From Escherichia phage vB_Eco4M-7, in the sequence record MN176217: a stretch of 64,000 bases of DNA; one strand, 5' to 3'. The position numbers and the translations under genes are program-made. Within the stretch, counting starts at the first letter, position 1; every line of letters starts with the position of its first letter. The notes beneath the pieces are model-generated. The model saw only the letters and a list, made by a program, of their open reading frames with translations, made no database searches and was not told the origin of the DNA. Positions 5,755 through 10,389 of the stretch are shown piece after piece.

Positions 5755-6180
5755 AGAACATTGATTCGTGTGTTTTGAAGAATGGAATGTGTACAATTGG
5801 TCGCTTTACGCGGCCTTTTTGTCGTTTGGGTCGTGTTTTGTGATAGAATAATTATGACGAGGTGTTTTATTTATTAATTGTGCGGAAATATTTAGAAATA
5901 TATACAAACAGGATTGTTAATATTTTAATAGTGTATGGCTATTGGTCCGTGGTGTTTGTTAGATTCTATCTATGGATTGGATTTTCTTGGGTCGTGGAAC
6001 GTGGTTTTGAACACATTTGATACGCCTAAAATACGGTTAAAAATTAAGCGTATCATGGCTGCAGGCCGCGCCGTTCCTGGATTCCTATTTTCAAAAGTGG
6101 TACACCCTTACGTCATGATACGTCATGGTTTTCTATCCGTAAGAGTGTACAGCCCTTGCCGCGCCTGGCTTGTACATTAA

Positions 6181-6326
6181 TCTTACGGATGATACGGATA
6201 AAACTGAGCATCGTTATATATAGAATTCGAAAAATTAATTAACTCCATTTTAAAAACATTTATATTAATTTTTTTCATATCCTCATACTTATGTTAATTT
6301 ATATATTTAACGTATCATCCGTAAGA
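6181..6326. repeat. inverted-repeat element A: TCTTACGGATGATACG arms flanking ~110 bp AT-rich core
   Basis: 6181-6199 TCTTACGGATGATACGGAT; 6311-6326 is its reverse complement; extra ATACG boxes at 6018, 6112, 6355-6378. Confidence 0.8.
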
Positions 6327-6606
6327 TATAAGTAAAAACAAAGACTTGCGGCAATACGGATGATACGTCATGATACGCTTCAACCAGCCAGCAGCGGCTA
6401 AGTCATTGATTTGCATAACAAGCGGCGAAAGGGATGGATTTCTTTTATACGTATCAAACAGTACACCACGCACCACGGTCCGCAATCCTATTTGCACTAT
6501 GATTTGTGTACGTTTATAGCCATAATGAACATCAATCTGCACTTGAATATAATGTCCATCCATTGTATAATTCACACTATTAATTTGCACTATGGGATTT
6601 TGCACT

Positions 6607-7080
6607 ATGAGTCAAGATTATGTAGCGATGCCTGAAGACTTTGAAGACCCGCGATTCGCAGAGCACAATCAGGCTTTATTCGATGAGTTCATTGACCTTG
6701 TTATTCAGGGCCATGACATGCGCGCAGCTTTTGCACTAGTATTTGGAATGGAAGTTGCAACGGATAACTACACTGGCCAGCGAATCCTTTGCACGCAACG
6801 CAATCCATACTACAAGATGCGCTTCAAAAAGCGTATGGAAGAGATGCCACTCAAGGATTTGTGGAGCGTAAAAGGTGCAATTCACAATTTGGTCAAGCTT
6901 GTGCGTGATCCAGAAGTCGCAGCGTCAGCCAAGCTTAATGCTATTCGTGAACTGAATATCATCTACGACATCACGATGATTGATGAAAACGGCAACAGCA
7001 AGATGGGCCGTTCCATGGACGATTTCTACAAGGATTTTGGAGAGGCGGCCAAAGAAGGCGAGCAATTCTCCCGCCACTAG
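6607..7080 (+). CDS. putative HTH DNA-binding protein, possibly terminase small subunit-like
   Basis: ATG at 6607 overlaps the third TTTGCACTAT motif; N-terminal FDEFIDLVIQGHDMRAAFALVFG resembles small-terminase HTH (recalled pattern, not searched). Confidence 0.35.
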   Translation: MSQDYVAMPEDFEDPRFAEHNQALFDEFIDLVIQGHDMRAAFALVFGMEVATDNYTGQRILCTQRNPYYKMRFKKRMEEMPLKDLWSVKGAIHNLVKLVRDPEVAASAKLNAIRELNIIYDITMIDENGNSKMGRSMDDFYKDFGEAAKEGEQFSRH

Positions 7081-7099
7081 CCAATTTGCACTATAAAAC

Positions 7100-7133
7100 G
7101 GCCCTAGAACACATTGTCTCCAATTCTAGGGCC
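7100..7133. other. 10-bp perfect stem-loop GGCCCTAGAA/TTCTAGGGCC
   Basis: Inverted repeat just after the stop of 6607..7080; no obvious U-tract. Confidence 0.5.
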
Positions 7134-7508
7134 ATCGGTAATACGACGGGGAAGGTTGCAACCGTAAACGCGTTAGAAAGTGTATTATTATAAGTCATCT
7201 TTTAGTCACCTTACGTAACAATTTACGACCTTCAACCGTCCAATCGAACGACTCCACCAGCAGATTCGCACTATAACCTAAGACCACTCGACCCTTCTCG
7301 TTATCGACCCGCCAGCAAGTCTCGAATAGCATTCGATTTGCACTATTAACTATTGCTGCGACTCGCGTAGGATAAGCGCAATTTGCACTATGGTCGTAAA
7401 GGGATAAGGTGCGACCACTTCCGATGGACAACGTAGCGATGAGAATGAGCGTATTCATAAGCCACCAATTTGCACTATGAAAAGCGACCCCGAAGGGCCG
7501 CCATTCGA

Positions 7509-8135
7509 TTAGATAATCTGGAAGGTGTAGGACTTGTTGCCGAACTCGAAGTTCAAGCGTCCAGCTTCTTTAAGCTTCATGCGGAAGCGAATATGCTTGC
7601 TATCCGGCAAGCCCAGCGCGGCGAACGCTACGCGGACCGATTTGAACTCGCCTACACCCTCGACCATAACGCCGTTACGGGTGAGACGCTTTTGCGCCAC
7701 TTCTTTATTATCCCAACTTTTTGCAATACCTTTGCTATTCGAACGGCGATGGGAAGGAATTGCAATTTTATTCGCTCCAACCGGAGCATCATTAAGGCCG
7801 CTTTTAACGAAGGCTTCATATTCTTCGTCGGTCATCGCGTCGAGTTCTTCCTGGGTCGGCTCGGCCTTTTTAACGACCGCGCGCGCCTTATGCGTTTTTA
7901 CATCACTGGACACTTCCTCGCGAGACTTTGCGTCTGGGATGGGCGATTCGTTGGACGGATCATCGAGCGCGTTTAAGGATTCGATTAACGCGATTACGCG
8001 AGTCTCAGCGGTGCGACGGTCCGCGAATTTTTTAATCGGCTTTGAGCCTGAATTTTCGTTATAGAATGCAACGAGGTCGGCGGTCTTGGTTGCGATTACG
8101 TCGCCGCTGGTGGAGAAACGATTCAAACTGGCCAT
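7509..8135 (-). CDS. hypothetical protein
   Basis: ORF track 208 aa; strong RBS AGGAG 8 nt upstream of ATG; protein-like composition unlike the overlapping plus-strand ORF. Confidence 0.6.
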   Translation of the reverse strand: MASLNRFSTSGDVIATKTADLVAFYNENSGSKPIKKFADRRTAETRVIALIESLNALDDPSNESPIPDAKSREEVSSDVKTHKARAVVKKAEPTQEELDAMTDEEYEAFVKSGLNDAPVGANKIAIPSHRRSNSKGIAKSWDNKEVAQKRLTRNGVMVEGVGEFKSVRVAFAALGLPDSKHIRFRMKLKEAGRLNFEFGNKSYTFQII

Positions 8136-8180
8136 AATAAACTCCTAGTTTGGGAGCGGTGTCAACGACCTATTCGTTAA

Positions 8181-8243
8181 CTCATCCGTCCCGATATGAG
8201 TACATTATAATATAGTGTAGAAAAAAAGTAAAGCACTTTTTCG
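8181..8243 (-). promoter_or_regulatory. promoter-like element (minus-strand copy)
   Basis: Reverse complement reads CGAAAAAGTGCTTTAC...TACACT...TATAAT, near-identical to the 8664 element. Confidence 0.5.
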
Positions 8244-8275
8244 ATAAAAATGAGATAAATTATTTTATCTTTTTT

Positions 8276-8318
8276 CTTTACTTCTTCGTACACTCGCGTA
8301 TACTTGTTTATATCGAGA
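8276..8318 (+). promoter_or_regulatory. promoter-like element (copy 2)
   Basis: CTTTACTTCTTCGTACACT (exact 19-mer shared with 8674) + TATACT 8299-8304 + GTTTATATCGAGA. Confidence 0.5.
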
Positions 8319-8360
8319 CGGGCGATGGCCCTTCCTTCTAATAGCATCGGGAGTTTTATT

Positions 8361-8663
8361 ATGACCACTTTAATCTCTTCTATCCTTACTTACGACGAAG
8401 ACCGTTTAACCGTTCGCTCTCTTATCGCCGCCGTTAACGCGGAACTAGAATCCACCATTATTAAGGTCCGCGCGGTCGCTTTCGTCGGCCTTTCCTTCGA
8501 CGATATTAAGTACGCCGAACGTAGCGTCATCCGCTTCGCGAAGACCGATGACGAAGCCGTTACCCTTATCGAGACGGTTACGCCGCGCGGCGAAGCGTTA
8601 ATTATCGTCGAGTATATCGACGTAGAAGGCGATAAGGCTTATAAATATTTTATCGCAAAATAA
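8361..8663 (+). CDS. hypothetical protein
   Basis: ORF track frame 8304..8663, start moved to ATG 8361 after GGGAG; CpG-rich codon choice. Confidence 0.5.
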   Translation: MTTLISSILTYDEDRLTVRSLIAAVNAELESTIIKVRAVAFVGLSFDDIKYAERSVIRFAKTDDEAVTLIETVTPRGEALIIVEYIDVEGDKAYKYFIAK

Positions 8664-8717
8664 CGAAAAAGTGCTTTACTTCTTCGTACACTAAGACTAT
8701 AATGTTTTATATCGAGA
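8664..8717 (+). promoter_or_regulatory. promoter-like element (copy 3)
   Basis: CGAAAAAGTGCTTTACTTCTTCGTACACT, TATAAT 8698-8703, GTTTTATATCGAGA. Confidence 0.5.
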
Positions 8718-8770
8718 GGGGATGAGGTAGCGAATAGGTCGCTACCCTCCCGACTAACTAGGAGAATATT

Positions 8771-9061
8771 ATGATTACTTTAGCCGCTATCCGCGACGCT
8801 CGCGTCGAGACTTCCGAAAATTCCAACGTATTTGGCGAAAAGCTTAAAAACGTCTATCTTTTTAACGTAGACGCAACTATCGAGCCTATTTATGAGCCGA
8901 TCAACTTCCTCGACCTTTACAAGTATCGCGACGAGGACATCGTATCATCCCGCGTAACGATCAACGGCTTCGTCTATACGATTACCGAAATCGGCGGCGA
9001 ATATCTCGCGGTCCCGCAACTCGGCGGCGAAGTAACTTTCTTTAAAATCGTAAGCCTGTAA
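8771..9061 (+). CDS. hypothetical protein
   Basis: ORF track 96 aa; RBS AGGAGAA upstream. Confidence 0.55.
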   Translation: MITLAAIRDARVETSENSNVFGEKLKNVYLFNVDATIEPIYEPINFLDLYKYRDEDIVSSRVTINGFVYTITEIGGEYLAVPQLGGEVTFFKIVSL

Positions 9062-9072
9062 GGAGAAGGAAG

Positions 9073-9282
9073 ATGACTAATATGAATAATTCTCTTAACG
9101 CGCGCGCCCATCGCACCGCCGTAATCGATATGTTCCGCGAGCTTAAGGAATTATGCGATAATATGAACGCGATGTTATCCATCGGCGGCTGGGGATACGA
9201 AGAAGAGGTTAAATACGCGGTTATGCGTCGCCGTCGCGATAACGTCCTTGGACAAATTAAACGCGCCGGATTATTCCTTTAA
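9073..9282 (+). CDS. hypothetical protein
   Basis: ORF track 69 aa; RBS GGAGAAGGAAG upstream. Confidence 0.5.
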   Translation: MTNMNNSLNARAHRTAVIDMFRELKELCDNMNAMLSIGGWGYEEEVKYAVMRRRRDNVLGQIKRAGLFL

Positions 9283-9307
9283 TTATAATTACCCACCGTT
9301 ACTAATA

Positions 9308-9333
9308 GGCCGCGCTTAGTCGCGGCTTTTCTT
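9308..9333 (+). terminator. rho-independent terminator
   Basis: GCCGCG-CTTAGT-CGCGGC hairpin followed by TTTTCTT. Confidence 0.6.
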
Positions 9334-9453
9334 CGTCCCTATCTCGATGCGCTTCTCCGCGAAAACTCCTTTATCCTTCCCTTCGTCGTCGCATAATCTT
9401 CGTCGAGATGCGCCTTAGTTCGCATAACAGGTATTACGTTAAATGGAGAACAT

Positions 9454-9526
9454 CGCGTAAGTCGTTGTTTTATATAGACACATATATCGGACCGTTAGGG
9501 CGGGTCGCGTAAGTCGTTGTTTTATA
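9454..9526 (+). repeat. direct repeat of 21-mer CGCGTAAGTCGTTGTTTTATA (two copies)
   Basis: Copies at 9454-9474 and 9506-9526. Confidence 0.8.
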
Positions 9527-9987
9527 AAGGCGCAAAACTTTCCCTTCGTTCCGAACTAAAACGAGAAATATGCCGACCCTTCGCCCGAAAATAGTACGCA
9601 TGCGAAATTACATGCATCTCGAATAATCCCCACCGATACTATCCTACACGCAATCATTCGCTTTCGAATCATTATGCTTCATATTATCATGCGTCGAATC
9701 ATTCGCTTTCGAATTGTAACGCTGGAAACTGTAACGGCGATTGATTATTGCGTTCGTGTGGTTTTTATGGCATGGGTCTTTTGGTGCGTTTTGCTACTTG
9801 ATGGAATTTGCGGTACACTAATCAAAATACGACACATTTGGTCCACTAACTTTTCAAAGAAAAAGTCCTAGACAGTACCGTACTATTTTGTACCCACAGG
9901 AAATTTGCAGTACACTCCTGCGCAGCAGGCAAAATAAAGGGCCGCACTAAGCGACCCACGATTCACGGTTAAAGCAACATCCACCCA

Positions 9988-10389
9988 CTATTCAATCTTA
10001 TGGGCATCACCAAAACCATCAGCAATCTGGCTGATCAACGACTCAATGGACACAGTTTTACCAATTGATCGAGCGGTAATAGCAAGCATATTATCAATCA
10101 AGCCACGATTGACTTCACATGTTCCAGGCTTTAACTCATCTTCAGAACAACCAAAAAGCTGGTCGCGCAGACTTTCAAGAGAACGCTCAATATTTTCCAA
10201 CTTCTCTTCTAAATCGGATTGGCGACGTAAAACCCATGTCAAGTCACGGTTGCCGACTTCCAATCCATCAGAATAGCAAGGTGGAGCGTCAATTTTGATG
10301 CTGGAACTAAAAGCAGTGCCGCTGCCTTTAGTATAAGTATGGCTCATAGAATCATTTTGGCTCATAGAATCATTTTTATTTGACATATC
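9988..10389 (-). CDS. hypothetical protein with tandem N-terminal SMSQNDSMS repeat
   Basis: ORF track frame 9988..10452, start trimmed to ATG with AAGG RBS; tandem 17-nt repeat at 10340-10380. Confidence 0.5.
   Translation of the reverse strand, partial: DMSNKNDSMSQNDSMSHTYTKGSGTAFSSSIKIDAPPCYSDGLEVGNRDLTWVLRRQSDLEEKLENIERSLESLRDQLFGCSEDELKPGTCEVNRGLIDNMLAITARSIGKTVSIESLISQIADGFGDAHKIE

Follow-up and report, generated by a model that had tools for sequence, protein, structure and literature searches.

A one-way motif array around the small terminase gene of Escherichia phage vB_Eco4M-7: a candidate packaging recognition region within the direct terminal repeat

Escherichia phage vB_Eco4M-7 (sequence record MN176217) carries an array of short directly repeated motifs around terS, the gene for its small terminase (TerS). 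The DNA analysed here, called the window, is a stretch of 64,000 nucleotides that makes up 64 kb of a genome of about 68 kb; the missing 4.1 kb were taken from the 99.9%-identical phage vB_Eco4M-7n. The phage belongs to Wifcevirus (PMC6563267; BASEL preprint), E. coli myophages distantly related to the Pseudomonas PB1-like phages, with WFC, WFH, ECML-117 and Mansfield among its relatives. The array lies inside the direct terminal repeat (DTR), beside its left edge, and comparison of five lineages shows that it is maintained by selection on the DNA. We put at about 45% the probability that the array is a TerS recognition region of the pac or cosB type for site-specific packaging, with terS in its middle.

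When at most one mismatch is allowed, ATTTGCACTAT matches the window eight times, on the plus strand only and between 6490 and 7478, where 1.9 matches are expected; none of 100 shuffled sequences reached eight. An earlier note on this DNA, made from its letters alone, had described eight same-strand copies, and both count and orientation hold; the positions it listed lie in the right places, shifted by 1-2 nt. The repeat it described is real, but the exact 12-mer AATTTGCACTAT occurs in only four copies. The 9-mer core TTGCACTAT occurs seven times in the window. The motif is 11 bases long, and the full array has 8-9 copies, the higher count including a weaker intragenic one:

6490 to 6500, plus strand: motif copy 1, ATTTGCACTAT, weakly conserved and reading TCAGCACTAT in most relatives
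6583 to 6593, plus strand: motif copy 2, ATTTGCACTAT, directly 3' of a predicted -10 box, in the 5' leader of terS
6598 to 6608, plus strand: motif copy 3, TTTTGCACTAT, overlapping the terS ATG at 6607
6729 to 6739, plus strand: additional weaker copy, TTTTGCACTAG, within terS at codons F-A-L, a position also occupied in the metagenomic contig L011
7084 to 7094, plus strand: motif copy 4, between the terS stop and a terminator hairpin
7264 to 7274, plus strand: motif copy 5, ATTCGCACTAT, in an 87-residue gene with the minus-strand reading S-A-N; ATTTGCACTAT in most relatives
7336 to 7346, plus strand: motif copy 6, in the 87-residue gene, N-S-A-N
7381 to 7391, plus strand: motif copy 7, in the 87-residue gene, H-S-A-N
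7468 to 7478, plus strand: motif copy 8, between the start of the 87-residue gene and the terminator of a 208-residue gene

The copies extend from -117 to +871 relative to terS, follow one another at irregular spacings of 15-355 bp and overlap three genes; five of them run antisense to the local genes. As the earlier note had it, the third copy overlaps a start codon. No copy was found outside the array, either in the rest of the 64-kb window or in the 4.1 kb from vB_Eco4M-7n, and the enrichment is thus confined to the one region where that note had expected it. Uniqueness in the genome is a property of pac and cosB sites, as is a position in or adjacent to terS, which the array occupies in all five lineages. 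Rfam covariance models gave no match on 5800-10100 at expectation values (E) of up to 1. The motif is unrelated to Chi (GCTGGTGG), of which a single complement (CCACCAGC, at 7254) lies within the array, immediately before motif copy 5. By eye, sigma-70, sigma-54, MotA-box, DnaA-box, marbox, TrpR and NtrC half-sites offered no consistent partner and no full consensus.

The gene at the centre of the array was identified by profile and structure comparison and by its codon-position pattern:

6607 to 7080, plus strand: terS, a small terminase of 157 residues in the TerS family of phage E217 (Pbunavirus)

A profile of seven homologues of its product, run against the PDB, matched 7UXE, 'Small terminase', over positions 4-152 with E=4.6e-46. 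The top Foldseek match of the AlphaFold2 model was E217 TerS itself (7uxe_A; 42% identity, E=2.8e-6, template modelling scores 0.44/0.57), followed by the TerS proteins of PaP3 and NV1 with only E>0.4. In this model, which has a predicted local distance difference test score (pLDDT) of 70.6, helices occupy residues 9-119 and short strands residues 123-133, ahead of a disordered tail. Across 11 Wifcevirus genomes the variable sites of terS are distributed 5/3/45 over the codon positions. Family searches were less informative: the 157-residue protein and its neighbours had no hits in Pfam and matched only PHROGs families of unknown function, and a Pfam scan of 40 TerS-family members returned nothing meaningful. 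The earlier note had suspected a small terminase or a regulator with a helix-turn-helix; judged by these matches, the open reading frame evidently is a genuine TerS of the E217 family, beyond being merely helix-turn-helix-like, and the gene is already annotated as TerS in the GenBank entry of Mansfield. The family comprises 167 representative clusters and occurs in Wifcevirus, Kylevirus, about 295 Pseudomonas phages (mostly Pbunavirus), Serratia phages MyoSmar and Hera, Xanthomonas and Burkholderia phages and others. The large terminase gene lies about 9 kb from terS; the two genes stand apart in E217 too (PMC9611059).

The position of the array relative to the genome end follows from boundaries of the Mansfield and Kyle type, Kyle being a Pantoea phage:

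6247 to 9781, no strand: DTR of about 3.5 kb, entered at the left through ttaactcc followed by ATTTTAAAAAC and closing at the right with GGGTCTTT followed by TGGTG
9805 to 9824, plus strand: motif-related element AATTTGCGGTACACTAATCA, with its first base 23 nt beyond the right end of the DTR
9902 to 9916, plus strand: second motif-related element AATTTGCAGTACACT, whose equivalent in L011 ends in ATCACGCACTAT

The Mansfield record opens at a DTR of 3,673 bp predicted by PhageTerm, and since its first base maps to window position 6247, the array lies 243-1,232 bp inside the left DTR edge, near the cut site as in pac and cosB regions. Exact duplicated DTRs are found in WFC (3,784 bp) and in Kyle (3,603 bp); in the WFC record the DTR runs about 80 bp past the right end that PhageTerm calls for Mansfield, to about 9862. 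The earlier note had offered a pac region, autoregulatory operators and origin iterons as readings of the repeats. Because the array is near the physical genome end and inside the DTR, the pac-type reading is favoured among these three; the operator reading is compatible with two copies, and the iteron reading does not fit, as set out below.

At the other edge, the right DTR end lies exactly 23 nt upstream of AATTT-N4-GTACACTAATCA both in Mansfield (by PhageTerm) and in Kyle. About 70 bp around this end can be aligned between Wifcevirus and Kyle (window 9760-9830; L001:3650-3720; L003:3580-3650), genomes that are otherwise unalignable at the DNA level. Elements at 9805, 9836 and 9902 resemble array motifs whose ATTTG and CACTA parts stand 3-5 bases further apart, and the L011 counterpart of the 9902 element reads GCACTAT. 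The variants AATTTGC(G/A)GTACACT that the earlier note had placed near 9806 and 9900 are present at 9805 and 9902, with no further match at up to two mismatches. Motif-like elements of the same orientation thus mark the DTR in its left part as well as at its right edge.

The left boundary, between 6246 and 6247, has an architecture of its own. Inverted arms of 27 nt (6170-6196 and 6311-6337) enclose an AT-rich spacer of 114 bp, with the boundary close to its midpoint, and eight copies of TGATACG/CGTATCA in both orientations straddle the boundary (window 6018-6460). The TGATACG family also surrounds the corresponding boundary of L011; in Kyle the repeats are AATATCCGAA and GGTTATT instead. This layout of TGATACG repeats and inverted arms could be the architecture of a cleavage site or an origin. 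An origin would also be the setting in which the array motifs themselves were iterons that bind a replication initiator. The direct sites do lie near the AT-rich stretch 6200-6310 with its flanking inverted repeats, but that stretch belongs with the different repeat family TGATACG, and no initiator gene adjoins the array, the primase and helicase genes being located elsewhere. Iterons are typically 17-22 bp long and regularly spaced, beside an AT-rich unwinding element and an initiator gene; the units of the array are short (11 bp), irregular (15-355 bp) and embedded in three genes, and for this reason iterons seem to us highly improbable.

The strongest evidence, that for selection on the array, comes from lineages whose DNA cannot be aligned with the window, namely the metagenomic contigs L011, L012 and L013 and phage Kyle, in which TerS is 68%, 50%, 46% and 43% identical to that of the window, respectively. 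The window, Mansfield and these four each carry 7-14 GCACTA cores on the terS strand between terS -150 and +1,000, and none of the compared lineages has a single core on the opposite strand of the same zone (Poisson p from 3e-7 to 7e-17). In the four unalignable lineages the copies reach from about 110 bp before the terS start to about 1,100 bp past it. The consensus of 59 sites is c-a-A-T-T-T-G-C-A-C-T-A-T, and close pairs of copies 10-15 bp apart occur in several lineages. The positions of the sites are not conserved. Most Wifcevirus genomes have a degenerate form of copy 1, and most have two further copies, missing from the window, in a patch of the 208-residue gene. The turnover can be followed best in the gene that copies 5-7 overlap, where the earlier note had seen no convincing gene:

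7195 to 7458, minus strand: gene of 87 residues, supported by its codon-position pattern and by homologues

The variable sites of this gene, distributed 2/5/30 over the codon positions in the 11 Wifcevirus genomes, show purifying selection and overturn that earlier view. Its product has a signal-peptide-like N-terminus and two conserved cysteines, and its homologues are found only in lineages that carry the array. It contains Ser-Ala-Asn three times, each being the reverse reading of a motif copy with the identical codons AGT GCA AAT, and in homologous 87-residue genes of other lineages the sites occupy different codons and even different frames. Number and polarity are thus kept while positions turn over and identical codons recur in overlapping genes, which shows selection on the DNA word rather than on peptides or RNA. 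Taken together, these comparisons lead us to conclude that the array is maintained by DNA-level selection in five lineages.

The strict one-strand polarity would also suit strand-specific nick sites, with one strand of the virion DNA being nicked as in T5 and BF23 or in Pseudomonas phages of the tf/LUZ24 type. The core CACT/ATG resembles the reported tf/LUZ24 nick consensus, TACT/RTGMC. BF23 and T5 have specific nicks together with long terminal repeats (PMC10644984). Known nick sites are, however, scattered over the genome rather than clustered within 1 kb, no nickase candidate was identified, and no nicks are reported for Wifcevirus in available records; we regard nick sites as very unlikely.

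Recognition of the array by TerS would be the most economical account of a unique, polar and DTR-internal array with a terminase gene at its centre. On concatemers, ring-shaped TerS oligomers would load on the head-to-tail sites; direct repeats would suit a cyclically symmetric ring whose DNA-binding domains all face the wrapped DNA in one orientation, or a sliding ring that reads DNA with polarity. Bound TerS would then position the large terminase to cut the nearby left repeat boundary and so start packaging, and the element near the right boundary would help to place the terminal cut. There are precedents both for pac sites in or beside terS, in P22 and SPP1 (PMC9611059), and for a sliding TerS, that of HK97, which reads the sequence as it moves along DNA (PMC11331095). 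The contrast with Pbunavirus, which has no array, a TerS in E217 without detectable binding and one reported headful packager (Banzai; PMC12390725), fits a gain of site-specific recognition in the enterobacterial clade with DTRs.

Several observations weigh against recognition by TerS. The closest solved homologue, E217 TerS, showed no appreciable DNA binding in vitro (PMC9611059). Although TerS diverges to 43% identity, the core of the motif stays essentially the same; a TerS and its cognate site usually drift together, so an invariant site could mean a more conserved binder of host or phage origin. With a length of 1 kb and spacings of 15-355 bp, the array is far larger than classical pac or cosB regions. 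Within the genus, variable columns number 3/55 in the motif and 52/373 elsewhere, a difference that is not significant (p=0.09) because the whole region is 91-96% identical. Nor do TerS and array occur together throughout the family. By k-mer enrichment and repeat finding, no comparable one-way array was found in Pbunavirus PS44 and PB1, MyoSmar, FoX7, PCSE1 and 15 IMG/VR loci with TerS 30-42% identical (an initial IMG/VR scan with a narrow alignment had yielded close relatives only); the GCACTA array is limited to the enterobacterial clade, in which TerS is at least 43% identical, and MyoSmar has a DTR and a TerS homologue without a GCACTA array.

A shorter word follows the TerS family more widely:

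6348 to 6354, plus strand: GCGGCAA, found also at L003:155, L004:206 and 229, L005:3712 and 3781, L007:603, L012:253, L013:297 and many IMG/VR loci

Of 21 diverse TerS-family loci, 16 have GCGGCAA on the terS strand within the 450 bp that precede terS, at distances of 90-400 bp, and none has it there on the other strand; control zones gave 2 and 1. Its wider association with the family weakens the predicted binding of the array by TerS, and GCGGCAA, located between DTR edge and terS, is the better family-wide candidate for a terminase or TerS site. Two DTR-type relatives without the array have repeats of their own. MyoSmar has three copies of the 22-bp, palindrome-containing AAAAAAATAAGCATGCTTTGTA just after terS (L005:4509-4639), and Salmonella phage PCSE1 has several copies of AAATATCGC before terS (L007:387-634), among repeats that include AAATATCG.

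The binder could thus be another protein, either a conserved host protein of Enterobacterales or a phage protein such as the 208-residue neighbour of TerS, and the array might serve the biology of the DNA end, as an injection stop or anchor or in end protection or organisation. Besides the invariance of the motif among phages with TerS 43-68% identical and the association of the family with GCGGCAA, this is favoured by the location of a polar array inside the DTR beside one boundary, which is the inner boundary in the right-hand DTR copy, as for T5 iss (bioRxiv 10.1101/866236). Chi complements point to the same zone: over the first 2 kb of their DTRs, Kyle (nine copies, L003:255-1972), L012 (six, 323-1824) and MyoSmar (four, L005:4653-4993) have one-way clusters of CCACCAGC, oriented to be recognised by RecBCD entering from the left end. 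Such clusters in the terS zone show that end-related selection acts there and suggest that RecBCD has access to the genome at its terS-proximal end. A phage-encoded candidate is the gene that converges with terS:

7509 to 8135, minus strand: gene of 208 residues, neighbouring terS in every family branch examined

This gene is conserved beside terS in Wifcevirus, Kyle, Pbunavirus, MyoSmar and PCSE1. Towards the C-terminus of its product a block, SVRAAF..L.LPDSKHIRFRMKLK, is conserved, and one homologue shows a faint NUMOD-like match to I-HmuI (E=0.04). A profile of the protein had no significant match in the PDB; the hits to it in one database search were all >91% identical, and a single-sequence structure (pLDDT 43) was unusable. 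The protein may bind DNA as a partner in packaging or in early functions, but it is also present in relatives without the array. As to host factors, the motif could be matched to no known site: the best, a DnaA box, agrees at 7/9 positions by eye, and the most conserved part of the motif, CTAT, falls outside that box. We know of no two-step injection among PB1-like phages, which counts against an injection stop, and T5 iss is non-coding with inverted repeats, whereas the array overlaps three genes and has direct copies only. On balance we consider a binder other than TerS rather unlikely.

The promoter region of terS bears both on recognition by TerS and on a purely regulatory role:

6543 to 6571, plus strand: sigma-70-like promoter TTGAAT-17-TATAAT, from a consensus scan only, which would start the terS transcript just before copies 2-3
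6526 to 6553, plus strand: second candidate sigma-70-like promoter, from a consensus scan only
7100 to 7133, no strand: terminator hairpin GGCCCTAGAA...TTCTAGGGCC, bidirectional, which separates terS from the convergent minus-strand genes and has an annotated equivalent in WFC

Copies 2-3 occupy the stretch from the predicted -10 box to the ATG of terS, so that an operator reading is compatible for these two, and L011 has three copies directly after a TATAAT. If TerS recognises the array, these promoter-proximal copies may double as operators that would additionally let TerS limit its own synthesis, and such autoregulation agrees with the finding that excess TerS lowers the infectivity of E217 (PMC9611059). 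Transcriptional control could also be the only role of the array, its copies acting as operators or as a phage-specific promoter element for terS and the convergent genes and having no part in packaging. In addition to the arrangement at the promoter, the motif core agrees at 7/9 positions with the T4 MotA box, TTTGCTTTA. Yet no copy lies in a consensus promoter match or has a -10-like element at a fixed distance downstream, the motif precedes no other gene in the genome, and five copies run against the local genes. In Kyle, 14 copies lie within or downstream of terS and none upstream, and operators rarely need 8-14 dispersed, one-way intragenic copies. Transcriptional control alone is therefore unlikely in our view. 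The phage-specific promoters of Pbunavirus have a different motif with a CTGGG core (PMC10914365). Elsewhere in the DTR, the sigma-70-like promoters at 8277-8304 and 8675-8703 (plus strand) share the 18-nt block TTTACTTCTTCGTACACT, which includes GTACACT; the GTACACT word is also present at the right DTR edge, and L013 carries the TTTACTTCTTCGTACACT block at 2454.

A further, speculative reading, which we hold to be as improbable as transcriptional control alone, is that the array is a polar signal for having entered the terminal repeat. A sliding TerS ring, or the terminase as it translocates, would read this signal, which would set, with the right-hand element, the second precise cut; alternatively, the array would serve as an arrest or anchor of the entering end of the T5 type. 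If it did set the second cut, it would provide a way for phages with kilobase-long exact repeats to define and duplicate them.

The remainder of the DTR differs among relatives at several places. The 208-residue gene has a mosaic patch at window 7759-7795, for which some genomes (Mansfield, WFC, Bas98, Bas100, TH32, kaset and WFH) have an alternative segment of about 37 bp with two adjacent motif copies 14 bp apart; these extra copies are missing from the window, Ro157lw, ECML-117 and RCIP0319. The region around 8140-8200 is of a type that differs from WFC and Mansfield. A gene of 69 residues at 9073-9282 (plus strand), which matches phrog_10377 'transcriptional regulator', is apparently additional in the window genome, and in WFC and Mansfield a terminator directly follows the homologue of 8771-9061, without the 69-residue gene.

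Small terminases are the accepted selectors of viral DNA, and how they recognise it is debated (PMC9611059, PMC11331095). The array offers a concrete candidate for the recognition DNA of the E217/PB1-type family, which is used in phage therapy. How boundaries are defined in phages with long exact repeats is poorly understood, and the locus provides a boundary element, GCGGCAA as a second candidate and arrays whose copy number varies naturally; the E. coli phage that carries it can be rebuilt synthetically (PMC11074155). Were TerS to bind the motif, the array would be a well-defined substrate for structural studies of this TerS family and would open a way into DTR formation; were it not to, this strongly selected polar signal at the end of a phage genome would have some other reader. 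The papers examined on Wifcevirus, vB_Eco4M-7, Mansfield, E217 and TerS, and Pbunavirus transcription do not mention the motif or its array, nor the conservation with turnover, the right-end element or GCGGCAA.

Among known systems, lambda cosB has three gpNu1 sites (R3-R2-R1) of mixed orientation in about 120 bp beside Nu1, with integration host factor (IHF) and a cohesive cut about 50-100 bp away. The array resembles it in having several short asymmetric sites between the genome end and the TerS gene, a gene beside its own presumed sites, and a site unique in the genome; it differs in its 8-14 one-way copies over about 1 kb, which overlap terS and two antisense genes, in the 3.5-kb DTR and in the E217-type TerS fold. 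The SRL and SRR repeat arrays of T7 and pacB of T3 and T7, reportedly described by Dunn and Studier in 1983 and by Chung and Hinkle in 1990, are suspected of a role in concatemer processing. Like SRL and SRR, the array consists of short direct repeats near a DTR boundary; the T7 arrays are tightly spaced heptamers outside a 160-bp repeat, and the T7 system depends on transcription by the phage RNA polymerase, whereas the copies here are loosely spaced inside a 3.5-kb repeat and surround terS.

As in the pac regions of SPP1 and SF6 (pacL/pacR boxes within and upstream of gene 1) and of P22 (inside gene 3), the candidate sequence lies in and around terS, and in SPP1 multiple contact points flank the cut (PMC9611059). 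Those are headful packagers whose series cuts are imprecise, unlike the present phage with its defined ends, exact DTR and an array several-fold larger. E217 shares a homologous TerS (42% identity), a terS apart from terL and a convergent gene of about 205 residues after terS; in contrast to the window, the examined Pbunavirus loci are without the array, and Pbunavirus termini are disputed. In T5 iss, cis-acting repeats are clustered in the long terminal repeat near its border, in 1.6 kb of non-coding DNA with inverted repeats, palindromes and paired DnaA boxes (bioRxiv 10.1101/866236). The array is likewise a conserved cluster of cis repeats inside a long terminal repeat near its border, but it is built from one short motif in direct copies only, mostly intragenic and arranged around terS.

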